Shown here: piece after piece, positions 1,261 through 62,571 of the stretch
How positions within the stretch are numbered: position 1 is the first letter of the stretch
Layout: the number at the start of each line of letters is the position of its first letter
From: Amphiscolops sp. MND2022
Lineage: Eukaryota
NCBI GenBank assembly: GCA_964187785.1
Contig: OZ076409.1
Coordinates: forward strand, 74,402,001 to 74,466,000
DNA length: 64,000 bases
Direction: 5' to 3'
The notes under the pieces: generated by a model
What the model was told of the DNA's origin: nothing
Seen by the model: only the letters and a program-made list of their open reading frames with translations
The model's database searches: none
Made by a program: the position numbers and the translations under genes

Positions 1261-1280
1261 GGGCATGCCGAGGCATGCCC
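1261..1280. promoter_or_regulatory. Subterminal palindrome GGGCATGCCGAGGCATGCCC, p53-family response-element-like (exemplar; 44 intact copies)
   Basis: Two adjacent decamers GGGCATGCCG/AGGCATGCCC match RRRCWWGYYY x2 at 19/20; binding is not demonstrated. Confidence 0.5.
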
Positions 1281-1330
1281 TTCGACGACGTATGCCAAAT
1301 ACCATATGCCACGCAGTCTTTTCCCGCTAG

Positions 1331-2617
1331 GTGCCGGGATTTCTATTCGTTCGAGTATGTGGCGCGTGTGGGTAGGGCCCCTGGCGCGCTCTTTTATTTC
1401 GGGTACACCTACTCCAAATTCACGATGTGATTTCGACGATCTCGTAAACTAGCCACACGATTTGGCTGAAATTTGGCACACGTACCCCCCTCGGCACGGT
1501 GAAGATGATTCCCTACTGACGTTTTGCTCGCTAAACATTTTTTGTTGACCAAAATAACGGTTTTTGGGGTAAAATTTTCAACTTTTTTTAAATTTCATCT
1601 TATATCTCGCCACGGGTACACGCTAGCGCTTCCACACCTTGCTGACGAAAGTTTGCAAACTGTCTCAGGAATGCTGTGTGAAATTTTCAGCTCAATCGGA
1701 CTTAAACTCGAGGAGATATAGCGTTTTTCCGGAGCGGGGGGGTTTCATTTTTCTAACGGTCCAGCTTATCTTTGCCATTTTTTCAAAAATGCACTCGCCT
1801 AAAGGCCTCCCCTGGCCGGTTTTATTCCCAGCAAAACCATTTGGCCCTAAATACGGAGTTTCAGCGTTCCAGCATTCCTGGGCGAAAAGTTGTGGGACTT
1901 AGAAAATTTCAAAAATTTTCAAAAAAATTTTTTTCCGTTATTTGGGCCCCCAAAGTGGGGGAAAAGACCCCCCAAGCAGTAAAGCAAGTGAATGCATGTG
2001 CAAAGCCCTTGTTTAGAGGAGAAAAATGCCGTTTAGAACGTCTTTTTATCTTGGCTCAACGTTGACTTATGACGTTTTGAAGGTGATGTTTGGAGGTGTA
2101 AAGCTCGTGAATAGTAAACGTTATGAGTATTTATCTGATCTGAAAGCCATTGAGATGCAATATGGTTTGCTCAAAACATAAATCATGGCAGTTTGGCAAT
2201 CAATCAACACCCTTTGTTGTCGTTTGACATACTATTTTGTTGTTATAATAAAAAATTTTGTGTATTTATTCATTTTTTTCTCATCAAATAACTTGAAACA
2301 GTTGAGTACATTCCATCCCCCCCTTCCGGGGGAGATGAGAATGTACTCGCAAAAAGCACCGAACTACGGCCCTTACCTTCCCGAGCTACGCAGTATAAGG
2401 ATTACATATTGGTTCCGACATTTTCATAGAGTTATATCTTGGTAATCTGTCTGGATATGCAGAAAAATCAGCACGTGCCTCTTAATACCAAGTTGCTCAC
2501 AACGACAATTCTTTTATATCAACGCCCCCATCTTTATCAACGCCCCCCGTCCGTGGGCATGCCGAGGCATGCCCTTCGACGACGTGCACCAAGATATGCT
2601 ATAACGCGTTAGCCTAG
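1331..2617 (+). mobile_element. Monomer U2, major family M (1287 bp)
   Basis: Head GTGCCGGG; similar to U30; CTAG|GTG boundaries. Confidence 0.6.
1362..1389 (+). other. Head stem-loop with TAGGG loop (exemplar)
   Basis: GCGCG-TGT-GGG TAGGG CCC-CTGG-CGCGC; an equivalent hairpin with varying arms sits near the start of units from all families examined. Confidence 0.7.
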
Positions 2618-3930
2618 GTGCCGGGATTTCTATTCGATAAAGTATGTGGCGCGTGTGGGTAGGGTCCCTGGCGCGCTCTTGGGTATGGTGTTCACCAGCT
2701 AGGAAATAGGGGTCGATTTTTCGGGATCTCCTAAACTAGCCACACGATTTGGCTGAAATTTGGCACACGTACTCCCCTCGGCATGGTGAAGATGATTCCC
2801 TACTAGCGTTTTGCTCGCAAAATTTTTTTTGTTGTCCAAAATAACGGTTTTTGGGGTAAAATTTTGAATTTTTTTTAAAGTTTATCTTATATCTCGCCAC
2901 GGGTTTACGCTAGCGCTTCAGAACCCTGCTAAAGAAAGCTTGCAAACTGTCTCAGGAATGCGGTGTGAAATTTTCAGCTCAATCGGACTCAAACTCAGGG
3001 AGATATAGCGTTTTTCCGGAGCGGGGGGGTTTCATTTTTCTAACGGTCCAGCTTATCTTTGCCATTTTTTCGAAAATGCACTCGCCTAAAGGCCTCCCCT
3101 GGCCAGTTTTATTCCCAGCAAAACCATTTGGCCCTAAATACGGAGTTTCAGCGTTCCAGCATTCCCGGGCGAAAAGTTGTGGGACTTAGAAAAATTCAAA
3201 AATTTTCAAAAATTTTTTTTTCGGTTTTCCGCCCTCCCCCCCGAGGGGAAAAGACCCCCCAACCAGTAATTTGAGTGAATTCATGTGGAAAGGCCATGTT
3301 TAGACGAAAAAATTGCCGTTTAGAACGTCTTTCTATCTCAACCTGACATTGACTTATGAAGCTTTAAAGGTGATGTTTGGACGTGTGAAGCATGTAAAAA
3401 AAGGAATTTTTTTGATTTTATTTCATCAGAAAGTCATTGAATCACACGCTGTGAAGCCCAGAGCGTGGTTTCTAATAGTTTGGTATCGTTTAAACGCATT
3501 TTGGTGTCTTTTTACTCTGTTTAAAAAACTTTTCTCCTGAAAATTAATAAATTTTGATTACTTTTCTTACTTTCCATTAATTTTTTTTTCTTATATTTTT
3601 ACTTGAAACAGTTGAGTACATTCCATCTCCCTTCCCGGGGGAGATGAGAATGTACTCGCAAAAAGCCGCGAACTACGGCCCATACCTTCCCGAGATACGC
3701 AGTATAAAGATAACATAATGGTCCAGACATTTTAATGGAGTTGTATCTTGGTAATATGTCTGGATTTGCAGAAAAATCAGCACGTGCCATTTTATACCAA
3801 GTTGCTCGCAACGACAATTAATTTAAATCAACGCCCCCCACAAAAATCAACGCCCCCCGTCCGTGGGCATGCCGAGGCATGCCCTTCGACGACGTGCACC
3901 AAAATATGCCCCGAGCGCGTTAGCAGCTAG
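2618..3930 (+). mobile_element. Monomer U3, family M (1313 bp)
   Basis: Head shared with U13/U15/U41; tail related to U33. Confidence 0.6.
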
Positions 3931-5205
3931 GTGCCGGTGTTTTTTTACACAATGGGGGAAGTTGCGCGGTTGGGGAGGGTCCCTGACGCGCTTCCGTGAG
4001 ATCAGGTTTTTCAACTAGTGAAATCGACAAAGAAAATTGGGATCTCGTAAACTAGCCATACGATTTGGCTGAAATTTGGCACACGTACCCCCCTCGGCAC
4101 GGTGAAGATGATTCCCTACTGACGTTTTTCCCGCTAAACATTTTTTGTTGACCAAAATAACGGTTTTTGGGGTAAATTTTTGAACTTTTTTTAAATTTCA
4201 TCTTATATCTCGCCACGAGTACACGCTAGCGCTTCCAAACCTTGCTGACGAAAGTTTGCAAACTGTCTCAGGAATGCTGTGTGAAATTTTCAGCTCAATC
4301 GGACTTAAACTCGAGGAGATATAGCGTTTTTCCGGAGCGGGGGGGTTTTATTTTTCTAACGGTCCAGCTTATCTTTGCCATTTTTTCGAAAATGCACTCG
4401 CCTAAAGGCCTCCCCTGGCCGGTTTTATTCCCAACAAAACCATTTGGCCCTAAATACGGAGTTTCAGCGTTCCAGCATTCCCGGGCGAAAAGTTGTGGGA
4501 CTTAGAAAAGTTCAAAAATTTTCAAAAAAATTTTTTTCCGTTATTTGGGCCCTCAAAGTGGGGGAAAAGACCCCCCAACCAGTAAAGCAAGTGAATGCAT
4601 GTGGAAAGCCCTTGTTTAGACGAGAAAAATGCCGTTTAGAACGTCTTTTTATCTTAACTTGACATTGACTTTTGTCGTTTTGAAGGTGACCGTTAGATAC
4701 GGAAAATTGATGTTTTGAGTATTTATCCCATCTGAAAGCCATTGAGATACAACATGTTTTGCTCAAAACGTGTTTCATTGCAGTTTCGCTGTCCATTATC
4801 ACCCTTTGGTGTCTTTTCACGTAATTTTTGTTTCTATAATAACAATTTTTTTGTGTATTTATTCATTTTTTTCTCATCAAATAACTTGAAACAGTTGAGT
4901 ACATTCCATCTCCCTTCCCGGGGGAGATGAGAATGTACTCGCTAAAGGTCAGGAACTACGGTCTATATCTTCCACAACACAAAAGGGATTGCAAATGGTT
5001 TCAGTTTGTCGCAGAAAACTTCTTTTTGCCCTCTGTGACTCGACAAAATGAACGTTTCTTACTTACTTTGAAACTCAGCATACCACAACTCATCTCTAAC
5101 GTCAGCGCCCCCCTACTTGCATCAACGCCCCCCGTCCGTGGGCATGCCGAGGCATGCCCTTCGACGACGTATACCAAGATATACCTGGAGCGCGGTAGCT
5201 GCTAG
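3931..5205 (+). mobile_element. Monomer U4, family M (1275 bp)
   Basis: Head shared with U8; tail shared with U40. Confidence 0.6.
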
Positions 5206-6492
5206 GTGGCCGGAAATTTTTTTTTCATCAAAATCTTTGCCATTGGGGGAGGGGCCCCGGATGGCCAGTAGTACGGGATAGCTTCCTACCAAATCCAGAT
5301 GGAAAAAACGTGATTTCGGAAACTAGCCGTCAGAATTTGCTCAAATTTTGCATACGGCTTCCTATAACAATCCTAAGAACTAATCCCTACTGGCATTTTG
5401 CCCAAAAAACGCAAAAAGTTGGTCAAAATCTTAGTTTTTTGGTCAAAAAATGGCGTTTTTTCGAAAAATTTTTTTTTCAGAGACAATTACTCGTAACTGG
5501 TTCACCCAGCGCAAAAACGCCTAGCTGATTTATTGTTGGGCACTTCATGAGGAGTGCGTATACAAATTTTCGTCCAGATCGGAAGAAAAATGACTAAGTA
5601 TTAGCCGGAATTCGGACGCATTTTTTCGCAAATTTTTGAAAACCTAGTCTATCTCTGCCGTTTTTTGCCCAGATTGTTTTCCAGGTCCTCTCCTAAAGGC
5701 CTCCCCTGGCCGGTTTACTTCCCAGAAAAACCAATTGGCCCTAAATACGGAGTTTCAGCGTTCTAGCATTCCCGGGCGAAAAGATGTGGGACTTAGAAAA
5801 AATTCAAAATTTTTCAAAAAAAAATTTTTTCGTTTTCCGGCCCCCCAATGAAGGGGAACGACCCCCCAACGAGGATTTTTGGTGAATTCACGTGGAAAGG
5901 CCTTGTTTTGTGGAGCAAATTGCCGTTTAGAGCAACTTTTTATCTTAACTTGACGTTGACCTCTGTCGTTTTGAATTTGATATTAGTATGTGTTGAGCAT
6001 GTGAAAAGTTGATGATTTCAGTTGTTCTCTCGTGTTCAAGCCATTGAGATACAAGCGGTAGTGATCAAAATGTGATTTATCGCAATTTGACGGTGCTTTT
6101 GGTGTATTTTGATTCTTTTAAATAAAAAGTTGTTCTTTATATATTTGGTGTATTGATTCAAATGAACAAGAAACAGTTGAGTACATTTCATCTCCCCCCT
6201 TGTGGGGGAGATGAGGATGTACCCGCTAAATGACACGCACAATGGCCTAATTTTATTTTTATGCGACATTTTCTAGGCTTTTGCGCAAGCCCACTAAAAT
6301 TTAGACTGGTTTCCTTTTCTTTTACTCCAAAATTTTCCGTACTAACCACCTTACGCACCACCAGCTCAACGTAACATCTGTAACGTCAACGCCACACACT
6401 CTCACTAACGCCCACCGTCCGTGGGCATGCCGAGGCATGCCCTTCGACGACGTATGCCAAATAGCGCCACAGGGCGCAAACTTGTCCGCTAG
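5206..6492 (+). mobile_element. Monomer U5, family B (1287 bp)
   Basis: Head GTGGCCGGAAATTTTTTTT; near-identical to U29. Confidence 0.6.
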
Positions 6493-7767
6493 GTGCCGGG
6501 ATTTCTATTCGTTCGAGTATGTGGCGCGTGTGGGTAGGGCCCCTGGCGCGCTCTTGTGTTTGGGGGTTTCCTACTTCTAAATCACGTTCAGATTTCCGGG
6601 ATCTCGTAAACTATCCATACGATTTGGCTGAAATTTGGCACACGTACCCCCCTCGGCACGGTGAAGATGATTCCCTACTGACGTTTTGCCCGCTAAACAT
6701 TTTTTGTTGACCAAAATAACGGTTTTTGGTGGAAAATTTTTGATTTTTTTTAAATTTCATCTTATATCTCGCCACGGGTTTACGCTAGCGCTTCAAAACC
6801 TTGCTGACGAAAGTTTGCAAACTGTCTCAGGAATGCGGTATGAAATTTTCAGCTCAATCGGACATAAACTCGGGGAGATATCGCGTTTTTCCGGAGCGGG
6901 GGGGTTTCATTTTTCTAACGGTCCAGCTTATCTTTGCCATTTTTTCGAAAATGCACTCGCCTAAAGGCCTCCCCTGGCCGGTTTTACTCCCAAAAAAAAC
7001 CATTTGGCCCTAAATACGGAGTTTCAGCGTTCTAGCATTCTCGGGCGAAAAGTTGTGGGACTTAGAAAATTTCAAAAATTTTCAAAAAATTTTTTTTTGT
7101 TATTTGGGCCCCCAAAGTGGGGGAAAGGACCCCCCAACCATTAATTTGAGTGAATGCATGTGCAAAGCCCTTGTATAGAGGAGAAAAATGCCGTTTAGAA
7201 CGTCTTTTTATCTTTACTCAACGTTGACTTATGACGTTTTGAAGGTGACCGTTAGATATGGAAAATTGATGTTTTGAGTATTTATCTCACCTGAAAGCCA
7301 TTGAGATACAACATGTTTTGCTCAAAACGGGTTTCATTGCAGCTTCGCTGTCTATTAACACCCTTTGGTGACTTTTGACATGTTTTTGCTTTTATATGAA
7401 ACCAATTTTTTGTGAATTTTTTTGTTTTTTTTTCATCTAATATCTTGAAACAGTTGAGTACATTCCATCTCCCTTCCCGGGGGAGATGAGAATGTACTCG
7501 CTAAAAGCCAAGAACTACGGCCTATACCTTCCCGAGCTACGCACTACAAATATTGCATATGCATGCAGACCTTTTGATACATTTTTATCTTTGTAGATTG
7601 ACTGGAAAAACCGAAAACTCTGTCCTGATTATACAAAGTTTCCTCACAACGACACATGTTTACCTCAACGCCCCATAGTTCTTATCAACGCCCCCCGTCC
7701 GTGGGCATGCCGAGGCATGCCCTTCGACGACCCGCACCAAAATATGCGTTAGCGCGGTAGCCGCTAG
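6493..7767 (+). mobile_element. Monomer U6, family M (1275 bp)
   Basis: Head shared with U45; tail related to U44. Confidence 0.6.
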
Positions 7768-9040
7768 GTGCCGGGATTTCCATTCGATAAGGAATTCTGC
7801 GCGTGTGGGTAGGGCCCCTGGCGCGCTCCTGTGTTTTCGGTTTTCCTACTCCTAAATAGACCCCCTGAATTCCGGGATCTCCTAAACTATCCATACGATT
7901 TGGCTGAAATTTGGCACACGTACCCCCCTCGGCACGGTGAAGATGATTTCCTACTGACGTTTTTCCCGCTAAACATTTTTTGTTGACCAAAATAACGGTT
8001 TTTGGGGTAAAATTTTGAACTTTTTTTAAATTTCATCTTATATCTCGCCACGGGTACACGCTAGCGCTTCCAAACCTTGCTGACGAAAGTTTGCAAACTG
8101 TCTCAGGAATGCTGTGTGAAATTTTCAGCTCAATCGGACTTAAACTCGAGGAGATATAGCGTTTTCCCGGAGCGGGGGGGTTTCAATTTTCTAACGGTCC
8201 AGCTTATCTTTGCCATTTTTTCGAAAATGCACTCGCCTAAAGGCCTCCCCTGGCCGGTTTTATTCCCAACAAAACCATTTGGCCCTAAATACGGAGTTTC
8301 AGCGTTCCAGCATTCCCGGGCGAAAAGTTGTGGGACTTAGAATTTTTCAAAAATTTTCAAAAAAATTTTTTTCCGTTATTTGGGCCCCCAAAGTGGGGGA
8401 AAGCACCCCCCAACCATTAAAGCAAGTGAATGCATGTGGAAAGCCCTTGTTTAGACAAGAAAAATGGCGTTTAGAACGTCTTTTTATCTTAACTTGACAT
8501 TGACTTTTGTCGTTTTGAAGGTGACCGTTAGATACAGAAAATTGATATTTTGAGTATTTATCCCATCTGAAAGCCATTGAGATACAACATGTTTTGCTCA
8601 AAACGTGTTTCATTGCAGTTCCGCTGTCTATTGACACCCTTTGATGTCTTTTGACGTAATTTTCTTTTCTATAATAACAATTTTTTTGTGTATTTATTCA
8701 TTTTTTTCTCATCAAATAACTTGAAACAGTTGAGTACATTCCATCTCCCTTCCCGGGGGAGATGAGAATGTACTCGCTAAAGGTCAGGAACTACGGTCTA
8801 TATCTTCCACAACACAAAAGCAATTGAAAATTGTTTCAGTTTGTTGCAGAAAACTTTTCTTTTTGCACTCAGTGACTCGGCAAAGTGAACGATTTTGACC
8901 CATATTGAATCTTACTTTACCACAACTCATCTCTAACGTCAACGCCCCCCACACACATCAACGCCCCCCGTCCGTGGGCATGCCGAGGCATGCCCTTCGA
9001 CGACGTATAGCAAAATATATTCGAACGCGGTAGCGGCTAG
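7768..9040 (+). mobile_element. Monomer U7, family M (1273 bp)
   Basis: Head related to U42; tail related to U4/U9. Confidence 0.6.
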
Positions 9041-10329
9041 GTGCCGGTGTCTTTTTACACAATGGGGGAAGTTGCGCGGTTGGGGAGGGTCCCTGACGCG
9101 CTTCCGTGAGATCAGGTTTTTCAACTAGTGAAATCGACAAAGAAAATTGAGATCTCGTAAACTAGCCATACGATTTGGCTGAAATTTGGCACACGTACCC
9201 CCCTCGGCACGGTGAAGATGATTTCCTACTGACGTTTTTCCCGCTAAACATTTTTTGTTGACCAAAATAACGGTTTTTGGGGTAAAATTTTCAACTTTTT
9301 TTAAATTTCATCTTATATCTCGCCACGGGTGCACGCTAGCGCTTCCAAACCTTGCTGACGAAAGTTTGCAAACTGTCTCAGGAATGCTGTGTGAAAATTT
9401 CAGCTCAATCGGACTTAAACGCGAGGAGATATAGCGTTTTTCCGGAGCGGGGGGGTTTCATTTTTCTAACGGTCCAGCTTATCTTTGCCATTTTTTCGAA
9501 AATGCACTCGCCTAAAGGCCTCCCCTGGCCGGTTTTATTCCCAGCAAAACCATTTGGCCCTAAATACGGAGTTTCAGCGTTCCAGCATTCTCGGGCGAAA
9601 AGTTGTGGGACTTAGAAAATTTCAAAAATTTTCAAAATTTTTTTTTCGTTATTTGGGCCCCCAAAGTGGGGGAAAAGACCCCCCAACCAGTAAATCAAGT
9701 GAATGCATGTGGAAAGGCCATGTTTAGAGGAGAAAAATGCCGTTTAGAACGTCTTTTTATCTTGGCTCAACGTTGACTTATGACGTTTTGAAGGTGATGT
9801 TTGGAGGTGTAAAGCAAGTGAATAGTAAACGTTATGAGTATTTATCTGATCTGAAAGCCATTGAGATGCAATATGATTGCTCAAAACGTAATTCATTGCA
9901 GTTTGGCAATCAATCAACACCCTTTGTTGTCGTTTGACATACTTTTTTGTTGTTAAAATAAAAAATTTTGTGTATTTATTCATTTTTTTCTCATCAAATA
10001 ACTTGGAACAGTTGAGTACATTCCATCCCCCCCTTCCGGGGGAGATGAGAATGTACTCGCAAAAAGCACCGAACTACGGCCCTTACCTTCCCGAGCTACG
10101 CAGTATAAGGATTACATATTGGTTCCGACATTTTCATAGAGTTATATCTTGGTAATCTGTCTGGATATGCCGAAAAATCAGCACGTGCCTTTTAATACCA
10201 AGTTGCTCACAACGACAATTATTTTATATCAACGCCCCCATATTTATCAACGCCCCCCGTCCGTGGGCATGCCGAGGCATGCCCTTCGACGACCCGCACC
10301 AAAATATGCGTTAGCGCGGTAGCCGCTAG
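9041..10329 (+). mobile_element. Monomer U8, family M (1289 bp)
   Basis: U4-type head with U2/U31-type tail. Confidence 0.6.
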
Positions 10330-11602
10330 GTGCCGGTGTTTTTTTACACAAAGGGGGATGTTGCGCGTGTGGGGAGGGTCCCTGACGCGCTCCCGGGATT
10401 TCGGATTTTTTAACCTTTACGTACCCATCAAAAATTTTGGGATCTCGAAAACTAGCCGTACGATTTGGCTGAAATTTGGCACACGTACCCCCCTCGGCAC
10501 GGTGAAGATGATTCCCTACTGACGTTTTTCCCGCTAAACATTTTTTGTTGACCAAAATAACGGTTTTTGGGGTAAAATTTTCAACTTTTTTTAAATTTCA
10601 TCTTATATCTCGCCACGGGTACACGCTAGCGCTTCCAAACCTTGCTGACGAAACCTTGCAAACTGTCTCAGCAATGCTGTGTGAAATTTTCAGCTCAATC
10701 GGACTTGAACTCGAGGAGATATAGCGTTTTTCCGGAGCGGGGGGGTTTCATTTTTCTAACGGTCCAGCTTATCTTTGCCATTTTTTCAAAAATGCACTCG
10801 CCTAAAGGCCTCCCCTGGCCGGTTTTATTCCCAGCAAAACCATTTGGCCCTAAATACGGAGTTTCAGCGTTCCAGCATTCCCGGGCGAAAAGTTGTGGGA
10901 CTTGAAAAATTTCAAAAATTTTCAAAAATTTTTTTTCCGTTATTTGGGCCCCCAAAGTGGGGGAAAAGACCCCCCAACCAGTAAAGCAAGTGAATGCATG
11001 TGCAAAGCCCTTGTTTGGACGAGAAAAATGCCGTTTAGAACGTTTTTTTATCGTAACTTGACATTGACTTTTGTCGTTTTGAAGGTGACCGTTAGATACG
11101 GAAAATTGATGTTTTGAGTGTTTATCCCATCTGAAAGCCATTGAGATACAACATGTTTTGCTCAAAACGTGTTTCATTGCAGTTTCGCTGTCCATTAACA
11201 CCCTTTGGTGTCTTTTGACGTAATTTTCTTTTCTATAATAACAATTTCTTTGTGTATTTATTCATTTTTTTCTCATCAAATAACTTGAAACAGTTGAGTA
11301 CATTCCATCTCCCTTCCCGGGGGAGATGAGAATGTACTCGCTAAAGGTCAGGAACTACGGTCTATATCTTCCACAACACAAAAGAGATTGCAAATTGTTT
11401 CAGTTTGTCGCAGAAAACTTCTTTTTGCACTCTGTGACTCGACAAAGTGAACGTTTCTTACTTACTTTGAATCTCACCATACCACAACTCATCTCTAACG
11501 TCAACGCCCCCCACACACATCAACGCCCCCCGTCCGTGGGCATGCCGAGGCATGCCCTTCGACGACGTATAGCAAAATATATTCGAACGCGGTAGCCGCT
11601 AG
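10330..11602 (+). mobile_element. Monomer U9, family M (1273 bp)
   Basis: Head shared with U10/U11; tail of U4/U7 type. Confidence 0.6.
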
Positions 11603-12893
11603 GTGCCGGTGTTTTTTTACACAAAGGGGGATGTTGCGCGTGTGGGGAGGGTCCCTGACGCGCTCCCGGGATTTCGGATTTTTTAACCTTTACGTACCCA
11701 TCAAAAATTTTGGGATCTCGAAAACTAGCCGTACGATTTGGCTGAAACTTGGCACACGTACCCCCCTCGGCACGGTGAAGATGATTCCCTACTGACGTTT
11801 TGCTCGCTAAACATTTTTTGTTGACCAAAATAACGGTTTTTGGGGTAAAATTTTCAACTTTTTTTAAATTTCATCTTATATCTCGCCACGGGTACACGCT
11901 AGCGCTTCCAAACCTTGCTGACGAAAGTTTGCAAACTGTCTCAGGAATGCTGTGTGAAATTTTCAGCTCAATCGGACTCAAACTCGAGGAGATATAGCGT
12001 TTTTCCGGAGCGGGGGGGTTTCATTTTTCTAACGGTCCAGCTTATCTTTGCCATTTTTTCGAAAATGCACTCGCCTAAAGGCCTCCCCTGGCCGGTTTTA
12101 TTCCCAGCAAAACCATTTGGCCCTAAATACGGAGTTTCAGCGTTCCAGCATTCCCGGGCGAAAAGTTGTGGGACTGAGAAAAGTTCAAAAATTTTCAAAA
12201 AAATTTTTTTCCGTTATTTGGGCCCTCAAAGTGGGGGAAAAGACCCCCCAACCAGTAAAGCAAGTGAATGCATGTGCAAAGCCCTTGTTTGGACGAGAAA
12301 AATGCCGTTTAGAACGTCTTTTTATCTTGGCTCAACGTTGACTTATGACGTTTTGAAGGTGATGTTTGGAGGTGTAAAGCACGTGAATAGTAAACGTTAT
12401 GAGTATTTATCTGATCTGAAAGCCATTGAGATGCAATATGGTTTGCTCAAAACGTAATTCATTGCAGTTTGGCAATCAATCAACACCCTTTGTTGTCGTT
12501 TGACATACTTTTTTGTTGTTATAATAAAAAATTTTGTGTATTTATTCATTTTTTTCTCATCAAATAACTTGAAACAGTTGAGTACATTCCATCCCCCCCT
12601 TCCGGGGGAGATGAGAATGTACTCGCAAAAAGCACCGAACTACGGCCCTTACCTTCCCGAGCTACGCAGTATAAGGATTTCATATTGGTTCCGACATTTT
12701 CATAGAGTTAAATCTTGGTAATCTGTCTGGATATGCAGAAAAATCAGCACGTGCCTTTTAATACCAAGTTGCTTACAACGACAATTATTTTATATCAACG
12801 CCCCCATATTTATCAACGCCCCCCGTCCGTGGGCATGCCGAGGCATGCCCTTCGACGACGTATACCAAGATATGCGTTAACGCGTTAGCCTAG
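11603..12893 (+). mobile_element. Monomer U10, family M (1291 bp)
   Basis: Highly similar to adjacent U11. Confidence 0.6.
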
Positions 12894-49778: not shown

Positions 49779-51062
49779 GTGGCCGTGTCTTTTCGACGTG
49801 CTTTTGCATCGAGGAGTGGGTAGGGCCCCGCGACGACCTAGAAGAATTGGATGCTCACCGAAACGTGCAGAATTCTACGAGATCTCATAGTTTGAGCCAT
49901 ACGATTTTTCTGAAATTTGGCATGTGGCCTGGAATTGGTGAGTAGGTAAAACGTGTAGAAGGTAATTTTTCCCAAATTCCACTGTGAGAGGAGATATGGG
50001 CAAATAACGGACCCAAAAATGGCAAAAATGCACATTTTTCAACTTTGTCAGCCAATATCTCTTTTCCAGGTGCCCGTAGCGTTCCGCACGTGGACATCAA
50101 TATTGCTCAGCGCTGTTGGAGGAGTGCGTGGACAAATTTTGGTTTAAATCGGACTTGAACTTGACGAGAAATTAACGGTTTTTTGGGCGTTTCCGGGGTA
50201 AATTTTTTAACGGTCCAGCTTATCTTTGCCATTTTTTCGAAAATGTACATGCCTAAAGGCCTCCCCCTGGCCGAATTTACTCCCAGCAAACCCATTTGGC
50301 CCTAAATACGGAGTTTCAGCGTTCCAGCATTCCGGGGCGGAAAGTTGTGGGACTTGGAAAAATTTCAAAATTTTTTCAAAAATTTTTTTTCCCGTTTTCC
50401 GGGCCCCCAATGAAGGGGAACGACCCCCCAACCAGTATTTTGAGTGAATTCATGTGGAACGCCCATGTTTGGAGGAGAAAAATGCCGTTTAGCACATCTT
50501 TTTATCTTAACTTGACATTGACTTATGACGTTTTGAATGTGATGTTAGTTAACATATGAAGCATGTTAAAAGTTGAAGTTTTGAGTGTTTATCTCATCGG
50601 AAAACCATTGAGATACAAGCAGTTTTGCTAAAAACGATTTTCATTGTAGGTTAGCAGAGTATTAGTACACTTTGATGTCATTTGAGTATTTTTTTCTTCT
50701 ATATAATAACTGTTTTTATGTATTTATTCCAATTTATCTCATCTTTTAACATCAAGCAGTTGAGTACATTTCATCTCCCTTTCGGGGGAGATGAGAATGT
50801 ACTCGCTAAAAACCTAATGCTATGGCGCCAATGTTTGGATGGGAAGTTTTCTATGCTTTGAAAAAAGTTATTTTTAATTACTTGATTTTTTAAAACAATA
50901 ATTAACATGAAGTACATTACTTGCTCCTACTACTACCACCATACATCTCTAACGTCAACGCCCCCTGCTTGCATCAACGCCCCATCGTCCGTGGGCATGC
51001 CGAGGCATGCCCTTCGACGACGTATGCCAAATGCCCAGTGCCACGCAGTCTTTCCCCGCTAG
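49779..51062 (+). mobile_element. Monomer U38, family A (1284 bp)
   Basis: Near-identical to U32. Confidence 0.6.
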
Positions 51063-52329
51063 GTGGCCGTGTCTTTTCGACGTGCTTTTGCATTGAGGAG
51101 TGGGTAGGGCCCCGCGACGACCTAGAAGAATTGGATGCTCACCGAAACGTGCAGAATTCTACGAGATCTCATAGTTTGAGCCATACGATTTTGCTGAAAT
51201 TTGGCATGTGGCCTGGAATTGGTGAGTAGGTAAAACGTGTAGGAGGTGATTTTTCCCAAATTCCACTGTGAGACGAGATATGGGCAAATAACGGTCCCAA
51301 AAATGGCAAAAATGCACTTTTTTCAACTTTGTCAGCCCATATCTCGTTCCCAGGTGCCCGGAGCGGGACGCGTTAAGCTGATTATAAACTCTAGGGTGTT
51401 GAGGCTGTACGGGGAAGTCAGGCCCGTTCCGATCGGACTTGTAGTCTTGGAGAAATAACGGTATTTTTGGGAAACCTTTTCTAACGGTCCAGCTTATCTT
51501 TGCCATTTTTTCGAAAATGTACTCGCCTAAAGGCCTCCCCCTGGCCGAATTTACTCCCAGCAAAACCATTTGGCCCTAAATACGGAGTTTCAGCGTTCCA
51601 GCATTCCCGGGCGAAAAGTTGTGGGACTTGGAAAATTTTCAAAAATTTTCAAAATTTTTTTTTCGTTTTCCGGGCCCCCAATGAAGGGGAAACGACCCCC
51701 CAACCAGTATTTTGAGTGAATTCATGTGGAAAGCCCTTGTTTTGACGAGAAAAGTACCGTTTAGAACATCTTTTTATCTTGACTCAACGTTGACTTATGA
51801 CGTTTTGAATGTGATGTAAGGATGTAGGAGGCATGTGATAAGTTGATGTTTTGAGTCTTTATCTCATATGAAAGCGGTTGAGATGCAAGCTGTTATGCTC
51901 AAAACGTCTTTCGTTGTAATTTTCCAGTGCACCAATACCCTTTGGTGTCATATAAACATACTTTTCGTCGATATATTAACAATTTTAATGTATTTATTCC
52001 AATTTTTATTATCTTTTAACTCAAAACAGTTGAGTACATTTCATCTCCCTTTCGGGGGAGATGAGAATGTACTCGCTAAAGACCTAGCGCCATGACCAAA
52101 AGTTTGAAACCCACGTTTTTTATCTTCTTACAGACTTGTTTTTGTATTTTTTCGGAATTTTTTAAAAATTAATATACTTGAAATACATTACTTGACTTTA
52201 CTACTACAATCCACCTCCAACGTCAACGCCCCCTTGCTTGCATCAACGCCCACCGTCCGTGGGCATGCCGAGGCATGCCCTTCGACGACGTATGCCAAAT
52301 GCCCAGTACCACGCAGTCATTATCGCTAG
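51063..52329 (+). mobile_element. Monomer U39, family A' (1267 bp)
   Basis: Similar to U23. Confidence 0.6.
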
Positions 52330-53604
52330 GTGCCGGTGTATTTTTACACAATGGGGGATGTTGCGCGTGTGGGGAGGGTCCCTGACGCGCTTCCGTGGTT
52401 TCGGGTCTTCTAACCTATGATAGCGTGACACCTGACTTCGATCTCGTAAACTAGCCGTACGATTTGGCTGAAATTTGGCACACGTACCCCCCTCGGCACG
52501 GTGAAGATGATTTCCTACTGACGTTTTTCCCGCTAAACATTTTTTGTTGACCAAAATAACGGTTTTTGGGGTAAAATTTTCAACTTTTTTAAATTTTCAT
52601 CTTATATCTCGCCACGGGTACACGCTAGCGCTTCCAAACCTTGCTGACGAAACCTTGCAAACTGTCTCAGGAATGCGGTGTGAAATTTTCAGCTCAATCG
52701 GACTTAAACTCGGGGAGATATAGCGTTTTTCCGGAGCGGGGGGGTTTCATTTTTCTAACGGTCCAGCTTATCTTTGCCATTTTTTCGAAAATGCACTCGC
52801 CTAAAGGCCTCCCCTGGCCGGTTTTATTCCCAACAAAACCATTTGGCCCTAAATACGGAGTTTCAGCGTTCCAGCATTCCCGGGCGAAAAGTTGTGGGAC
52901 TTAGAAAAGTTCAAAAATTTTAAAAAAAAATTTTTTCCGTTATTTGGGCCGTCAAAGTGGGGGAAAAGACCCCCCAACCAGTAAAGCAAGTGAATGCATG
53001 TGGAAAGCCCTTGTTTAGACGAGAAAAATGCCGTTTAGAACGTCTTTTTATCTTAACTTGACATTGACTTTTGTCGTTTTGAAGGTGACCGTTAGATACG
53101 GAAAATTGATGTTTTGAGTATTTATCCCATCTGAAAGCCATTGAGATACAACATGTTTTGCTCAAAACGTGTTTCATTGCAGTTTCGCTGTCCATTATCA
53201 CCCTTTGGTGTCTTTTCACGTAATTTTCGTTTCAATAATAACAATTTTTTTGTGTATTTATTCATTTTTTTCTCATCAAATAACTTGAAACAGTTGAGTA
53301 CATTCCATCTCCCTTCCCGGGGGAGATGAGAATGTACTCGCTAAAGGTCAGGAACTACGGTCTATATCTTCCACAACACAAAAGGGATTGCAAATGGTTT
53401 CAGTTTGTCGCAGAAAACTTCTTTTTGCCCTCTGTGACTCGACAAAATGAACGTTTCTTACTTACTTTGAAACTCAGCATACCACAACTCATCTCTAACG
53501 TCAGCGCCCCCCTACTTGCATCAACGCCCACCGTCCGTGGGCATGCCGAGGCATGCCCTTCGACGACGTATACCAAGATATACCTGGAGCGCGGTAGCCG
53601 CTAG
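52330..53604 (+). mobile_element. Monomer U40, family M (1275 bp)
   Basis: Tail near-identical to U4, different head. Confidence 0.6.
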
Positions 53605-54895
53605 GTGCCGGGATTTCTATTCGATAAAGTATGTGGCGCGCCTTGGGTAGGGTCCCGTGCGCGCTCTTGGGTATGGTGTTCACCAGCTAGGAAATAGGGG
53701 TCGATTTTTCGGGATCTCCTAAACTAGCCACACGATTTGGCTGAAATTTGGCACACGTACTCCCCTCGGCATGGTGAAGATGATTTCCTACTAGCGTTTT
53801 GCTCGCAAAATTTTTTTTGTTGTCCAAAATAACGGTTTTTGGTGGAAAATTTTGAACTTTTTTTAAATTTCATCTTATATCTCGCCACCGGTTAACGCTA
53901 GCGCTTCAAAACCCTGCTAAAGAAAGCTTGCAAACTGTCTCAGGAATGCTGTGTTAAATTTTCAGCTCAATCGGACTTAAACTCGGGGAGATATAGCGTT
54001 TTTCCGGAGCGGGGGGGGTTTCATTTTTCTAACGGTCCAGCTTATCTTTGCCATTTTTTCGAAAATGCACTCGCCTAAAGGCCTCCCCTGGCCGGTTTTA
54101 CTCCCAAAAAAACCATTTGGCCCTAAATACGGAGTTTCAGCGTTCCAGCATTCCCGGGCGAAAAGTTGTGGGACTTAGAAAAGTTCAAAAATTTTCAAAA
54201 AAATTTTTTTCCGTTTTCCGCCCTCCCCCCCTAGGGGAAAAGACCCCCCAACCAGTAATTTGAGTGAATTCATGTGGAAAGGCCATGTTTAGAGGAGAAA
54301 AATCCCGTTTAAATCGTCTTTTTATCTTTATTCAACGTTGACTTATGACGTTTTGAAGGTGATGTTTGGAAGGTGTGAAGCACGTGAAAAGTAAACGTTA
54401 TGACTATTTATCTGATCTGAAAGCCATTGAGATGCAATCTGTTTTGCTCAAAACGTAATTCATATCCGTTTGGTAGTCAATCAACACCCTTTGTGGTCAT
54501 TTGACATCTTTTTTTGTTGATATAAGAAAAAATTTTGTGTATTTTTTCATTTTTTTCTCATCAAATAACTTGAAACAGTTGAGTACATTCCATCCCCCCC
54601 TTCCGGGGGAGATGGGAATGTACTCGCAAAAAGCACCGAACTACGGCCCTAACCTTCCCGAGCTACGCAGTATAAGGATTACATATTGGTTCCGACATTT
54701 TCATAGAGTTAAATCTTGGTAATCTGTCTGGATATGCAGAAAAACCAGCACGTGCTTTTTTATACCAAGTTGCTTACAACGACAATTATTTTATATCAAC
54801 GCCCCCATATTTATCAACGCCCACCGTCCGTGGGCATGCCGAGGCATGCCCTTCGACGACGCGCACCAAAATATTCCCCGAGCGCGTTAGCCTAG
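53605..54895 (+). mobile_element. Monomer U41, family M (1291 bp)
   Basis: Similar to U13/U15. Confidence 0.6.
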
Positions 54896-56185
54896 GTGCC
54901 GGGATTTCCATTCGATAAGGAATTCTGCGCGTGTGGGTAGGGCCCCTGGCGCGCTCATGTGTTTTCGGTTTTCCTACTCCAAATTCACACCCCAGTTATC
55001 TCCGATCTCGTAAACTATCCATACGATTTGGCTGAAATTTGGCACACGTACCCCCCTCGGCACGGTGAAGATGATTCCCTACTGACGTTTTGCCCGCTAA
55101 ACATTTTTTGTTGACCAAAATAACGGTTTTTGGTGGAAAATTTTCAACTTTTTTTAAATTTCATCTTATATCTCGCCCCAGGTTTACGCTAGCGCTTCAA
55201 AACCTTGCTGACGAAAGTTTGCAAACTGTCTCAGGAATGCGGTGTGAAATTTTCAGCTCAATCGGACTTAAACTCGAGGAGATATAGCGTTTTTCCGGAG
55301 CGGGGGGGTTTCATTTTTCTAACGGTCCAGCGTATCTTTGCCATTTTTTCGAAAATGCACTCGCCTAAAGGCCTCCCCTGGCCGGTTTTACTCCCAAAAA
55401 AACCATTTGGCCCTAAATACGGGGTTTCAGCGTTCTAGCATTTCCGGGCGAAAAGTTGTGGGACTTAGAAAATTTCAAAAAGTTTCAAAAAATTTTTTTC
55501 CGTTATTTGGGCCCCCAATGTGGGGGAAAGGACCCCCCAACCAGTATTTTGAGTGAATGCATGTGCAAAGCGCTTGTTTAGAGGAGAAAAATGTCGTTTA
55601 GAACGTCTTTTTATCTTTACTCAACGTTGACTTATGACGTTTTGAAGGTGATGTAAAGAGGTGTGAAGCACGTGAAAAGTAAACGTTATGAGTATTTATT
55701 TGATCTGAAAGCCATTCAGATGCAATCTGATTTGCCCAAAACGTAATTCATTTCAGTTTGGCAGTCAATCAACACCCTTTGTTGTCGTTTTACATATTTT
55801 TTTGTTGATATAATAAAAAATTTTGTGTATTTATTTATTTTTTTCTCATCAAATAACTTGAAACAGTTGAGTACATTCCATCTCCCTTCCCGGGGGAGAT
55901 GAGAATGTACTCGCAAAAAGCCCCGAACTATGGCCCTTACCTTCCCGAGCTACGCAGTATAAAGATTGCATATTGGTTTCGACATTTTGATAGAGTTATA
56001 TCTTGGTAATCTGTCTGGATATGCAGAAAAATCAGCACGTGCCTTTTTATACCAAGTTGCTCACAACGACAATTATTTTATATCAACGCCCCCATATTTA
56101 TCAACGCCCCCCGTCCGTGGGCATGCCGAGGCATGCCCTTCGACGACCCGCACCAAAATATACTCCCAAGCGCGGTAGCGGCTAG
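54896..56185 (+). mobile_element. Monomer U42, family M (1290 bp)
   Basis: U7-like start, middle shared with U44. Confidence 0.6.
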
Positions 56186-57454
56186 GTGGCCGTGTCTTTT
56201 CGACGTGCTTTTGCATCGAGGAGTGGGTAGGGCCCCGCGACGACCTAGAAGAATTGGATGCTCACCGAAACGTGCAGAATTCTACGAGATCTCATAGTTT
56301 GAGCCATACGATTTTGCTGAAATTTGGCATGTGGCCTGGAATTGGTGAGTAGGTAAAACGTGTAGGAGGTGATTTTTCCCAAATTCCACTCTGAGACGAG
56401 ATATGGGCAAATAACGGTCCCAAAAATGGCAAAATTGCACTTTTTTCAACTTTGTCAGCCCATATCTCGTTCCCAGGTGCCCGGAGCGGGACGCGTTAAG
56501 CTGATTATAAACTCTAGGGTGTTGAGGCGGTACGGTGAACTTTGGCCCGTTCCGATCGGACTTGTAGTCTTGGAGAAATAACGGTATTTTTGGGAAATTT
56601 TTTCTAACGGTCCAGCTTATCTTTGCCATTTTTCGAAAATGTACTCGCCTAAAGGCCTCCCCCTGGCCGAATTTACTCCCAGCAAAACCATTTGGCCCTA
56701 AATACGGAGTTTCAGCGTTCCAGCATTCCCGGGCGAAAAGTTGTGGGACTTGGAAAAATTTCAAAAATTTTCAAAATTTTTTTTTACGTTTTCCGGGCCC
56801 CCAATGAAGGGGAAACGACCCCCCAACCCTTATTTTGAGTGAATGCATGTGGAAAGGCCATGGTTAGAGGAGAAAAATGCCGTTTAGATTGTCTTTCTAT
56901 TTTAACTTGACATTGACTTATGACGTTTTGAATGTGATGTTAGGATGTGTGAGGCATGTGAAAAGTTGATGTTTTGAGTCTTTATCTCATATGAAAGCAA
57001 TTGAGATGCACGCTGTCCTGCTCAAAACGTCTTTCGTTGTAGTTTTCCAGTGCACCAGAACCCTTTGGTGTCATTTGAACATACTTTTCTTCGGTTTATT
57101 AACATTTTTAATGTATTTATTCCAATTTTTATTATCTTATAGCTCAAAACAGTTGAGTACATTTCATCTCCCTTTCGGGGGAGATGAGAATGTACTCGCT
57201 AAAGACCTAGCGCCATGACCAAAATTTGAAGCGCACGTTTTGTATCTTCTTACAGACTTGTTTTTGTATTTTTTCGGATTTTTCTAAAAAATAATAATAT
57301 ACTTGAAATACATTACTTGACTTTACTACTACATTCCACCTCCAACGTCAACGCCCCCCTGCTTGCATCAACGCCCACCGTCCGTGGGCATGCCGAGGCA
57401 TGCCCTTCGACGACGTATGCCAAATGCCCAGTGCCACGCAGTCATTTTCGCTAG
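56186..57454 (+). mobile_element. Monomer U43, family A' (1269 bp)
   Basis: Related to U23/U39. Confidence 0.6.
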
Positions 57455-58722
57455 GTGCCGGGATTTCTATTCGTTCGAGTATGTGGCGCGTGTGGGTAGG
57501 GCCCCTGGCGCGCTCTTGTGTTTCGGGTTTTCCTACTCCTAAACCGCGTTCAGATTTTCGGGATCTCGTAAACTAGCCATACGATTTGGCTGAAATTTGG
57601 CACACGTACCCCCCTCGGCACGGTGAAGATGATTCCCTACTGACGTTTTGCCCGCTAAACATTTTTTGTTGACCAAAATAACGGTTTTTGGTGGAAATTT
57701 TTCAACTTTTTTTAAAATTCATCTTATATCTCGCCCCAGGTTTACGCTAGCGCTTCAAAACCTTGCTGACGAAAGTTTGCAAACTGTCTCAGGAATGCGG
57801 TGTGAAATTTTCAGCTCAATCGGACTTAAACTCGAGGAGATATAGCGTTTTTCCGGAGCGGGGGGGTTTCATTTTTCTAACGGTCCAGCGTATCTTTGCC
57901 ATTTTTTCGAAAATGCACTCGCCTAAAGGCCTCCCCTGGCCGGTTTTACTCCCAAAAAAACCATTTGGCCCTAAATACGGGGTTTCAGCGTTCTAGCATT
58001 TTCGGGCGAAAAGTTGTGGGACTTAGAATATTTCAAAAATTTTCAAAAAAATTTTTTTCCGTTATTTGGGCCCCCAATGTGGGGGAAAGGACCCCCCAAC
58101 CAGTATTTTGAGTGAATGCATGTGCAAAGCGCTTGTTTAGAGGAGAAAAATGTCGTTTAGAACGTCTTTTTATCTTTACTCAACGTTGACTTTTGTCGTT
58201 TTGAAGGTGACCGTTAGATATGGAAAATTGATGTTTTGAGTATTTATCTCATCTGAAAGCCATTGAGATACAACATGTTTTGCTCAAAACGTGTTTCATT
58301 GCAGTATCGCTGTCCATTAACACCCTTTGGTGACTTTTGACATATTTTTTTTATATATAATATCACTTTTTTGTGCATTTTTTCGTTTTTTTCTCATCTA
58401 ATATCTTGAAACAGTTGAGTACATTCCATCTCCCTTCCCGGGGGAGATGAGAATGTACTCGCTAAAGGCCATGAACTACGGCCTATACCTTCCCGAGCTA
58501 CGCACTACAATTATTGCATATGCATGCAGACCTTTTAATACATTTTTATCTTTATAGATTGACTGGACAAACTGAAAACTCTGTCCTGATTATACAAAGT
58601 TACCTCACAACGACACATGTTTACGTCAACGCTCCATACTTTACATCAACGCCCACCGTCCGTGGGCATGCCGAGGCATGCCCTTCGACGACGTATAGCC
58701 ACTCAAACGCGGTAGCCGCTAG
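57455..58722 (+). mobile_element. Monomer U44, family M (1268 bp)
   Basis: U42-like middle, U6-like tail. Confidence 0.6.
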
Positions 58723-60012
58723 GTGCCGGGATTTCTATTCGTTCGAGTATGTGGCGCGTGTGGGTAGGGCCCCTGGCGCGCTCTTGTGTTTGGGGGTTTC
58801 CTACTTCTAAATCACGTTCAGATTTCCGGGATCTCGTAAACTATCCATACGATTTGGCTGAAATTTGGCACACGTACCCCCCTCGGCACGGTGAAGATGA
58901 TTTCCTACTGACGTTTTTCCCGCTAAACATTTTTTGTTGACCAAAATAACGGTTTTTGGTGGAAAATTTTTGATTTTTTTTAAATTTTATCTTATATCTC
59001 GCCACGGGTCCACGCTAGCGCTTCCAAACCTTGCTGACGAAACCTCGCAAACTGTCTCAGGAATGCTGTGTGAAATTTTCAGCTCAATCGGACCTAAACT
59101 CGGGGAGATATAGCGTTTTTCCGGAGCGGGGGGGTTTCATTTTTCTAACGGTCCAGCTTATCTTTGCCATTTTTTCGAAAATGCACTCGCCTAAAGGCCT
59201 CCCCTGGCCGGTTTTACTCCCAAAAAAACCATTTGGCCGTAAATACGGAGTTTCAGCGTTCTAGCATTCCGGGGCGAAAAGTTGTGGTACTTAGTAAATT
59301 TCAAAAATTTTCAAAAATTTTTTTTTCGTTATTTGGGCCCCCAAAGTGGGGGAAAAGACCCCCCAACCAGTAATTTGAGTGAATTCATGTGGAAAGGCCA
59401 TGTTTAGCGGCGAAAAATGCTTTTTAGATCATCTTTTTATTTTAACCTGTTGTTGACTTATGTTGTTTTGAAGGTGATGTTTGGATGTGTGAAGCATGTG
59501 AAAAGGTAATTTTTTGTGTCTTTATCTCTTCTAAAAGCCATTGAGATGCAATCTGTTTTGCTCAAAACGTAATTCAATGCAATTTGGCAGTCAATGAACA
59601 CAATTTGGTGTCTTTTGTTATATTTTTCTGTTGATATAATAAAAAATTTTGTGTCTTTATTAATTTTTTTTAAATAAAATAACTTGAAACAGTTGAGTAC
59701 ATTCCATCCCCCCCTTCCGGGGGAGATGGAAATGTACTCGCTAAAAGCCGCGAACAAGAGCCCATACCTTCCTGCGCTACGCAGTATAAAGATTGCATGT
59801 TGGTTCCGACTTTTTGGTAGTGTTATATCTTGGTAATTTGACTGAATATGGAGAAAAATCAGCAAGTGCTCTTTTATAGCAAATTGCTGACAACGACAAT
59901 TTTTTTATATCAACGCCCCCATATTTATCAACGCCCCCCGTCCGTGGGCATGCCGAGGCATGCCCTTCGACGACGTATACCAAGATATACTCACGAGCGC
60001 GGTAGCCGCTAG
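58723..60012 (+). mobile_element. Monomer U45, family M (1290 bp)
   Basis: U6 head, diverged tail. Confidence 0.6.
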
Positions 60013-61299
60013 GTGCCGGGATTTTCTATTCGACAAGTTTGCGCGCCTTGGGGAGGGTCCCTTTGCGCGCTTTAAGATCCAGGTGTTTCCAACTCCTAAA
60101 CGGGCATGTGATTTCGACGATCTCCTAAACTAGCCATACGATTTGGCTGAAATTTGGCACACGTACCCCCCTCGGCACGGTGAAGATGATTTCCTACTGA
60201 CGTTTTTCCCGCTAAACATTTTTTGTTGACCAAAATAACGGTTTTTGGGGTAAAATTTTCAACTTTTTTTAAATTTCATCTTATATCTCGCCACGGGTAC
60301 ACGCTAGCGCTTCAAAACCTTGCTGACGAAAGCTTGCAAACTGTCTCGGGAATGCGGTGTGAAATTTTCAGCTCAATCGGACTTAAACTCGAGGAGATAT
60401 AGCGTTTTTCCGGAGCGGGGGGGTTTCATTTTTCTAACGGTCCAGCTTATCTTTGCCATTTTTTCGAAAATGTACTCGTCTAAAGGCCTCCCCTGGCCGG
60501 TTTTATTCCCAGCAAAACCATTTGGCCCTAAATACGGAGTTTCAGCGTTCCAGCATTTCCGGGCGAAAAGTTGTGGGACTTAGAAATTTTCAAAAATTTT
60601 CAAAAATTTTTTTTCCGTTATTTGGTCCCCCAAAGTGGGGGAAAAGACCCCCCAACCAGTAAAGCAAGTGAAAGCATGTGCAAAGCCCTTGTTTGGACGA
60701 GAAAATTGCCGTTTAGAACGTCTTTTTATCTTGGCTCAACGTTGACTTATGACGTTTTGAAGGTGATGTTTGGAGGTGTAAAGCAAGTGATTAGTAAACG
60801 TTATGAGTTTTTATCTGATCTGAAAGCCATTGAGATGCAATATGGTTTGCTCAAAACGTAATTCATTGCAGTTTGGCAATCAATCAACACCCTTTGTTGT
60901 CGTTTGACATACTTTTTTGTTGTTATAATAAAAAATTTTGTGTATTTATTCATTTTTTTCTCATCAAATAACTTGGAACAGTTGAGTACATTCCATCCCC
61001 CCCTTCCGGGGGAGATGAGAATGTACTCGCAAAAAGCACCGAACTACGGCCCTTACCTTCCCGAGCTACGCAGTATAAGGATTACATATTGGTTCCGACA
61101 TTTTCATAGAGTTATATCTTGGTAATCTGTCTGGATATGCCGAAAAATCAGCACGTGCCTTTTAATACCAAGTTGCTCACAACGACAATTATTTTATATC
61201 AACGCCCCCATATTTATCAACGCCCCCCGTCCGTGGGCATGCCGAGGCATGCCCTTCGACGACCCGCACCAAAATATGCGTTAGCGCGGTAGCAGCTAG
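60013..61299 (+). mobile_element. Monomer U46, family M (1287 bp)
   Basis: Near-identical to U31. Confidence 0.6.
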
Positions 61300-62571
61300 G
61301 TGGCCGGGAACTTTTTTTCCTGCATTTTTCTGTCCAATTGGGGGAGGGGCCCCAAGTGGCTGTTATCCGGTTTTACTACCTACCCTAAACACGCTCAAAA
61401 AATGACGATCTCGAAAACCACCCCTTAGATTTTCCTGAAACTTTGCATACAGGCCTAGAATCAAATCCTAAGAACTATTTCCTACTGGCGTTTTTCCGAA
61501 TTTTTTCAAAAAGTTGGTCAAAAATGCAACAAAAGTTGCCAATGGACAGAAAAAACGCAACTTTTCGACTTTGAGGGCTCATAACTTTTTCCAGAGTGCC
61601 CGGAGCGGTTCGCACGTGGACAACAATATTGCTCAGCATTGTCGGATGAGTGCGTGGACAAATTTTGGTTTGAATCAGATGAAAATTGACTGAGAAATGA
61701 ACGCAAATTTCTGTGCATTTGTTGCAAAAACCAGTTTATCTCTGCCATTTTCGCCCAAACTTTTTCCCAGAGCCTTTATAGGAGGCAACCCCTGCCCAAT
61801 TTTCTGCCAAGCAAACCCATTTGGCCCTAAATACGGAGTTTCAGCATTCTAGGATTCCCGGGCGAAAAGTTGTGGGACTTAGAAAATTTTCAAAAAAACG
61901 CAAAAATTGTAAAAAGTAACTTCAGGCGCCCCAAAGTCACAAAACTTCCACACAACTAGTATTGCAAGTGAATGCATGTGGAAAGTACTTGGATAGACGA
62001 GAAAAATGAGCTATAGAACAACTCTGTAGCTTAATCTGACGTTGACTTATGACATTTTGAGTGTGAGCATCCTATAGGATTTTAATGTCAAAAATGAGAT
62101 TTTGTAAGTCATGTCTCATCAAAAACTCATCGGAATACGTTCAATCATCCCCATAGCTGTTCAATCACCGTTGCTTAGTAGAGCAACGCCATTTAACGTC
62201 TTTGGACCCATTTTGAAAATTTTCGAAATCGTCTTATTCGTCCGATATCACGAAACAGTTGAGTACATTCCATCTCCCCCTTGGGGGGAGATGAGAATGT
62301 ACTCGCCAAAGACCTGATATAATGGCCCATATTGTTTTTTATTTAACCTTTCTCACGATATTGCACACGGATAGCTGTGTTTGGTAAACGTTTTCCTTTG
62401 CACCATACCTCCAAAAGCTAAACCACTTTTTTAGCTTACTACTTCTACTCAAACATCACTAACGTCAACGCCACACACTCTCACTAACGCCCACCGTCCG
62501 TGGGCATGCCGAGGCATGCCCTTCGACGACGTATGCCAAATAGCGCCACAGGGCGCAAATATTTCCGCTAG
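61300..62571 (+). mobile_element. Monomer U47 (1272 bp)
   Basis: Related to U24. Confidence 0.6.

Follow-up and report, generated by a model that had tools for sequence, protein, structure and literature searches.

A selected 35-bp dyad with a near-optimal p53-type site near the ends of non-coding units in a head-to-tail array

Along 64,000 nucleotides of contig OZ076409.1 from Amphiscolops sp. MND2022 (positions 74,402,001 to 74,466,000, the whole of which is called here the window), non-coding units follow one another head to tail in a single orientation, and close to the 3' end of most of them lies a 20-bp motif (hereafter, the 20-mer) that resembles a response element of the p53 family. 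This 20-mer is the centre of a 35-bp dyad that is selected within a variable setting and has a near-optimal p53 score. The reading that we prefer, with a probability of roughly 45%, is that the core of this module would be read as double-stranded DNA by a p53-family tetramer of the host, the whole acting as an accessory end module under a second, structural constraint. This reading is drawn from the sequence, and the features on which it is built are as follows.

1261..1280, + strand: the 20-mer, first of 44 copies (the last at 62502-62521), in which the self-complementary octamer GGCATGCC occurs twice, with a period of 10 bp
1255..1289, + strand: the 35-bp invariant block of the first unit, that is, a 6-bp left flank, the 20-mer and a 9-bp right flank
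1225..1250, + strand: a pair of CAACGCC boxes that precede the block; their spacer varies, 11-13 bp
27340..27359, 32543-32562 and 34521-34540, + strand: the paired G1A/C20T variant of the 20-mer, with dyad and p53 consensus kept
53..63641, + strand: the head-to-tail array of 48 complete non-coding units, in one orientation and running past both window ends
1327..1333, + strand: an example of the unit junction, CTAG|GTG; the exact cut inside the heptamer is not placeable

A sequence-only reading of this DNA had reported the motif in 44 of the 48 units, which is borne out: 41 copies are exact and three carry the paired change G1A/C20T, all 44 lying on the + strand within two mismatches, and a 45th, diverged copy is found at 23757. 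The 20-mer consists of two p53-type decamers with spacer 0 and one mismatch (at position 10), and it folds into an 8-bp stem with a CGAG loop, to which the flanks of the block add four pairs beyond a 3x3 internal loop (z of -3.45 for the 44-nt stretch). That this is the most invariant long motif of the array also stands, in that no 12- or 16-mer outside it recurs in 44 of the 48 units, but its extent had been underestimated, the invariant block being of 35 bp and not of 20. Over these 35 bp the 44 units show three haplotypes, against 28 in the 35 bp upstream and 25 in the 25 bp downstream, and in 39 units of the largest family (family A) the block has three variable columns, against 8 and 13 in the next-best blocks of 35 columns and a median of 30. 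All eight core positions of the 20-mer are invariant in the 44 terminal copies. The proximal CAACGCC box accompanies the module in 44 of 44 units and the distal one in 38, and the distance from the module to the unit end takes 12 different values, between 38 and 57 bp (the 20-mer ends 34-53 nt before CTAG).

Such a uniform block might have no function of its own, if recent gene conversion kept it so and palindrome-templated repair gave rise to the paired change. Short tracts do move between families, as illustrated by the family-A unit 31341-32608, which holds the family-D variant within family-A flanks, and family-A units in general are mosaic; besides, G1A/C20T is possibly one event, and palindrome-templated repair could produce such a pair. 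However, conversion has to face the jump in haplotype number immediately on either side of the block and an internal copy that has changed at 7 of the 35 positions. The G1A/C20T variant is also present in a metagenome contig, L003, whose body is 69-80% alike and whose module is identical at 55 of 56 positions, although that divergence is within the range of family A in the window (53-99.6%) and the contig may come from the same species, so it is not cross-species evidence. We give the absence of function very little credit: the 35-bp dyad is under base-by-base purifying selection, and its uniformity is not that of a recent sweep.

As for the p53 likeness, a scan for two RRRCWWGYYY decamers with spacer 0 and at most one mismatch gave 44 matches, against 0.14 expected from 100 shuffles, and the earlier claim of two p53-type decamers without spacer is upheld; the copies being related, the fair chance figure is the one per unit, namely 5 in 3000 when a single unit is shuffled. 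By the definition of p53 response elements in terms of sequence (two RRRCWWGYYY, spacer 0-13), 44 sites qualify, whose mismatch is only at position 10, and the 20-mer can accordingly be called a candidate element. Affinities were predicted with a measured matrix for human p53 only (PMC2275157 Table 2). They amount to a logKd of -7.45 for the 20-mer (about 35 nM, within the range of natural sites) and of -7.35 for the G1A/C20T variant, while the optimum of the same matrix is -7.61 and the p21 5' site reaches -7.11 (PMC2275157 Tables 2, 3). Apart from the 44 copies, every 20-mer of the window falls short of -6.8.

Could the hairpin by itself account for this likeness? It does not, even allowing for four conserved hairpins per unit, because a random perfect-dyad 20-mer reaches -7.45 at a probability of 0.7-2.3e-5, and the p21 level of -7.11 at 2-3e-4. 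Furthermore, each arm is itself palindromic at the 10-bp period, which a dimer of dimers needs and a hairpin does not, and the stem sequence of the module is constant across families whereas the head and long hairpins of the units change theirs, which suggests that the sequence is read by a protein. A dispensable module with loose spacing fits an accessory site, unlike the rigid arm of a recombinase. In the literature, p53-family specificity is conserved from human to fly (PMC2807882), p53 prefers cruciform-capable sites (PMC5343910, a review), and working p53 sites have been described in a non-autonomous DNA transposon (PMC3485254). That host factors of some other kind are the readers seems to us highly improbable.

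Selection by a p53-family protein alone, nonetheless, does not reproduce the pattern of conservation, and a series of observations weighs against the reading that we prefer. The p53 energy profile predicts fixed cores with the rest free, and this prediction failed: 10 of the 12 tolerant columns are also fixed, a tolerated transition being seen at only two of them (nominal p 0.003-0.013), as are 14 of the 15 flank columns in 39 family-A units, in which 78% of columns vary (nominal p 6e-9); these p values are rough and overstate the case, since the units are related. G10, the sole non-consensus base, is constant even though any change there would be neutral or better for p53, and the 20-mer itself varies only by the paired change G1A/C20T, under which the stem is preserved. 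The 20-mer is, in addition, the sole consistently strong hairpin near the 3' end, and no substitute p53 site is present in the four units that lack the module. The diverged copy at 23757 (predicted logKd -6.47 with the human matrix) keeps 9 of 12 pairs and loses both core Cs, which would exclude p53 if that copy were live, although its pairing is weak evidence, given that a C-to-T change opposite G always resembles a wobble. Because tolerant and flank columns are fixed besides the cores, a second constraint is needed. The alternative as first posed, a p53-family factor or else a hairpin or transposase site that resembles its target, is partly supported: the likeness exceeds what chance gives a hairpin and the module behaves as an accessory cassette, but p53 selection alone fails, and probably either both halves hold together or the transposase-site half is the right one.

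The units without the module and the worn copy are located as follows.

20561..21836, + strand: module-less unit with a family-A body, with neither a full p53-like site nor a perfect half-site
34595..35673, + strand: module-less unit of its own family, without p53-like site
48500..49778, + strand: module-less unit with a family-A body, related to 20561-21836, without p53-like site
62572..63641, + strand: module-less unit of its own family, without p53-like site
23757..23776, + strand: diverged copy, internal to the composite unit at 21837-24030, with 7 of 35 positions changed and both core Cs turned into T

Since 4 of the 48 units are without it, the module is not needed to join the array and is dispensable in that respect. 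The head of the composite unit differs from the others and lacks the usual loop, its middle is akin to family C and its rear is family-A-like; in it, the worn module is followed by a worn junction near 23812 and then by 215 bp that end in an intact module, located at 23954, 197 bp downstream of the diverged copy. This unit resembles a product of read-through, in which a worn module was passed over in favour of a new one.

There is an appreciable chance that the module is instead the 3' end signal (a terminator hairpin or a dyad site) of the trans-acting enzyme of the elements themselves, either Helitron/IS91-like or a recombinase, common to families A, C and D, and that its p53 likeness is accidental or secondary. 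Dissimilar bodies with only their ends in common are the ordinary signature of non-autonomous elements, and the universal head, the loose tail and the CTAG end match the logic of Helitrons, in which a 19-bp palindrome before CTAG ends copying and is helpful without being essential (PMC4778049). An end signal would also suit a dyad that takes in the entire 35 bp and changes in pairs, the run of the worn-module unit over 215 bp to the intact module, as read-through would give, and the lack of any other consistent hairpin in the tails, which makes the 20-mer the best terminator candidate: a separate terminator hairpin beside CTAG is not supported overall, the mean z being -0.41 over 38 distinct tails and -0.52 over 72 controls, though a 5-bp hairpin with z below -3 is found within the last 30 nt of 4 of these tails. 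The CGAG loop matches stable tetraloop classes (cYNMGg in RNA, cCNNGg in DNA). Against such a signal stands the low probability, about 1e-5 to 3e-4, that a dyad would by accident match p53 this well. The stem of Helraiser is swappable and it is the loop that matters (PMC4778049), whereas here the stem is frozen, and the palindrome lies at a variable 34-53 nt before CTAG, compared with about 11 in Helraiser. Moreover, no enzyme gene was found in the 64-kb window, where frames of at least 120 codons were counted (13, the longest of 188 codons) and none analysed beyond that, and no autonomous partner was found. Reading by p53 and reading by an enzyme are not mutually exclusive, and the split between them rests on a guessed prior, namely the share of best-kept hairpins of mobile families that are real p53 sites.

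An action in RNA, where the module would form a stable 3' hairpin of unit transcripts serving priming, processing or protein binding, is improbable. In its favour, the RNA fold gives the same stem and 3x3 loop in 11 of 11 folded module-bearing ends (with an outer helix of 2-4 bp), that fold leaves the variable C/T of position -2 unpaired, and two of the changes in the diverged copy are compatible with G-U pairing; the two GCAUG words of the module could also be Rbfox-type sites. By contrast, no G-U variant occurs in the 44 terminal copies, though there are many in the head hairpin, and no poly(A) tail or other mark of a retro-element was seen at the unit ends. Nor did an Rfam covariance-model search of bases 1-36000 recover any family, its 10 matches (best E 0.37) all falling far under the gathering score.

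Returning to the reading by a host p53-family tetramer, the elements would be non-autonomous and would carry at their 3' end an accessory module of ~65 bp, with the 20-mer as its core. Units would be added singly at existing CTAG|GTG junctions; the order of the units is observed, and from here we infer insertion at the junctions, circle intermediates and an enzyme acting in trans. The core would be read as double-stranded DNA by a tetramer of the p53/p63/p73 type, and the flanks would carry the second constraint, be it an extended hairpin or cruciform or more protein contacts. The site would lie 38-57 bp upstream of a unit head in a unit-length circle just as it does in the array, and a p53-family factor activated by stress or in the germline may open the junction or transcribe across it, favouring copying by the trans-acting enzyme. 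Opening of this kind could explain a module that has spread across families and yet is dispensable for insertion.

If the sites are bound, the dense binding platform that had been proposed is a matter of arithmetic, 61 kb holding 44 of them, and a single locus with so many near-optimal sites could titrate the factor. The p53 sites of transposons are usually viewed as drifting material later co-opted by the host; a site that is the most conserved part of its elements and is common to different bodies would be one that the elements themselves are selected to keep. Binding by a host p53-family protein would turn this array into a direct test case of mobile DNA timing its copying to DNA damage or to the germline. 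If it is the enzyme of the elements that reads the module, the module and CTAG|GTG would delimit a self-targeting array of mixed families that lies outside both Helitron groups, and would provide a bait for that enzyme.

Regarding the array itself, the heptamer CTAGGTG has 49 copies on the + strand of the 64-kb window and one on the - strand, and the 49 junctions, all identical, cut the window into 48 complete units that start with GTG and end with CTAG without exception. Their lengths span 1070-2194 bp, mostly 1263-1316 bp. One large mosaic family, A, comprises 41 of the 48 units (pairwise identity 53-99.6%, median 65%; 30 clusters at 95%), and the remainder are two families of two copies each, two singletons and the composite, so that at least five families are represented. 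The two-copy families, whose labels are assumed to be those of the sequence-only reading, are located as follows.

24031-25419 and 27414-28802, + strand: family C units
25420-27413 and 32609-34594, + strand: family D units

Both carry the motif, as had been stated, but they are not otherwise unrelated, for a long hairpin (82% over 62 nt) and a unit-start block (83% over 42 nt) are common to both as well. Near-identical units have different neighbours, and the similarity of tails tracks their own unit (Mantel r of 0.53 with their own upstream sequence and 0.58 with their own head) over the next head (0.19); the CTAG|GTG junction is thus a real boundary at which units are placed singly, and the array has been shuffled at the level of units. 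Crossover between units inside the palindrome is ruled out by the same correlations, the tails following their own unit. Visual inspection also led us to discard GT-AG introns and spliced-leader genes, since nothing donor-like stands at positions +4 to +6, another AG closely precedes the final one in many tails, and what would be the leader varies. Window positions 1-52 begin within another module, of which the right flank and the tail are seen, and the array consequently extends upstream. In L003 the junction is CGAG|GTG (positions 873-885), from which the T of CTAG is not obligatory. Reads of run X1 on 27414-40800 yielded 42 short contigs, 7 of them at 99% or better, with depth in 21 of 30 bins, and the motif is not readable in them; one contig of this low-depth run spans exactly one unit (38219-39506), which is compatible with another unit order elsewhere but weak, being a single contig at depth 2.1.

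Relatives were sought with pattern searches, which gave 0, 2, 0 and 4 stretches in viral contigs (four patterns), one in metagenomes and, in prokaryote genomes, none for the module pattern and 120 for a loose junction pattern. In total, 126 of the 127 loci were dropped as chance matches, since BLAST against the units related only L003 to them.

Apart from the module, the units have several features in common.

1362..1389, + strand: head hairpin (example, unit 2), with a variable stem and the loop [T/G]AGGG[N], about 37-43 bp past the junction
1435..1530, + strand: block common to all families, the module-less ones included (example, unit 2), at about +105 to +200, edges approximate
1031..1073, + strand: long hairpin (family-A example), about 300 bp ahead of the unit end
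25067-25111 and about 26952-27000 (families C/D), and 35393-35438 (unit 34595-35673), + strand: long hairpins of other sequence in a similar place

The loop of the head hairpin is found in 47 of the 48 units and in L003, on 16 distinct stems with paired changes and G-T pairs, and it looks like a single-strand recognition hairpin; that of the last partial unit has one extra loop base (near 63682). The long hairpin, 280-460 bp before the end in most units, exists in three unrelated sequences according to family, and none is evident in unit 62572-63641. No terminal inverted repeats were found in the units, the longest exact inverted match between head and tail being of 5-8 nt, and inverted repeats between tail and body (12 nt, one mismatch) occur in 11 of 48 units at inconsistent positions. 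The last 40 bases of a tail pair slightly better with their own head than with permuted or next heads (-5.71 against -5.07 kcal/mol for DNA and a 6-base head, weaker for longer heads, and with few independent families), which could reflect the pairing of ends in a circle.

In the window CpG is not depleted (observed/expected 1.03), no tRNA genes were found, short tandem repeats amount to 9 minor rows, and nothing informative came from a sigma-70 scan over bases 1-4000. A 12-bp unit is repeated 4.6 times at 35090-35144, inside the module-less unit 34595-35673, and ACCGGAAGT words, which resemble an ETS site, recur at a 20-bp period at 24888-24934 and 28271-28317, and also near 22735-22765 (family C and the composite unit).

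In the literature searched, whose scope excluded Repbase, supplements and most subscription journals, neither the 18-bp core (in its DNA, reverse-complement or RNA form) nor an array of this type nor a link with p53 appeared. Several known systems are similar in part. The canonical p53/p63/p73 element (PMC2275157, PMC2807882) shares with the 20-mer the two decamers, the CATG cores and the zero spacer, and the 20-mer equals the tightest measured p53 sequence at 18 of 20 positions (PMC2275157); the candidate site of the array differs in its frozen flanks and tolerant positions and in lying within an extended dyad. Mobile families with a p53-type site include zebrafish EnSpm-N6_DR (PMC3485254), which is a non-autonomous DNA transposon, and human LTR10/MER61 (tabulated in PMC3649676). 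They are dispersed, have terminal inverted or long terminal repeats, and carry drifting sites (about 93% identity in EnSpm-N6_DR), whereas in the present case, a mixed head-to-tail array, no part of the element is better conserved than the site, which several families have in common.

With the right end of HLE1 Helitrons (PMC4778049, PMC11417382) the units share the lack of terminal inverted repeats, the CTAG 3' end, a head steadier than the tail and a non-essential palindrome of 19-20 bp near the 3' end. The 3' CTRR of HLE1 is present as CTAG in 48 of 48 units (CGAG in L003), but GTG replaces the 5' TC in all 48, the hairpin is not at about 11 nt from the 3' end but 34-53 nt before CTAG, and all copies in the array lie at unit-unit junctions, with no A|T target seen. 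As for the RepHel transposase of an autonomous HLE1 partner, the window holds no frame longer than 188 codons. HLE2/Helentron elements, including proto-Helentrons (PMC11417382), are alike in their 5' stem-loop and CTAG 3' end, and differ in the conserved 12-nt tail inverted repeat and the T|T target, both of which the array units lack. The junction heptamer could be read as a direct terminal repeat of the Replitron type (PMC10288648), for which only unit-unit junctions are available here.

With its universal head, the array fits neither Helitron group and may be a more novel object than the site itself. Integron cassette arrays are another case in which mixed units stand in one orientation with one core sequence, under a recombinase controlled by stress (SOS), although the units described here are non-coding, apparently eukaryotic and have no known recombinase. 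It is a rather doubtful idea that an integron-like, self-targeting array has recruited a p53-family factor of its host as a switch. The site, frozen within an extended hairpin and passed between families of dissimilar body, would then be an end signal and at the same time a sensor of stress or germline, repeated at intervals of about 1.3 kb through 61 kb or more, and the locus would be one of stress-inducible mobility and a sink for p53-family proteins; a stress-factor site within such an array would parallel the SOS control of integrons.

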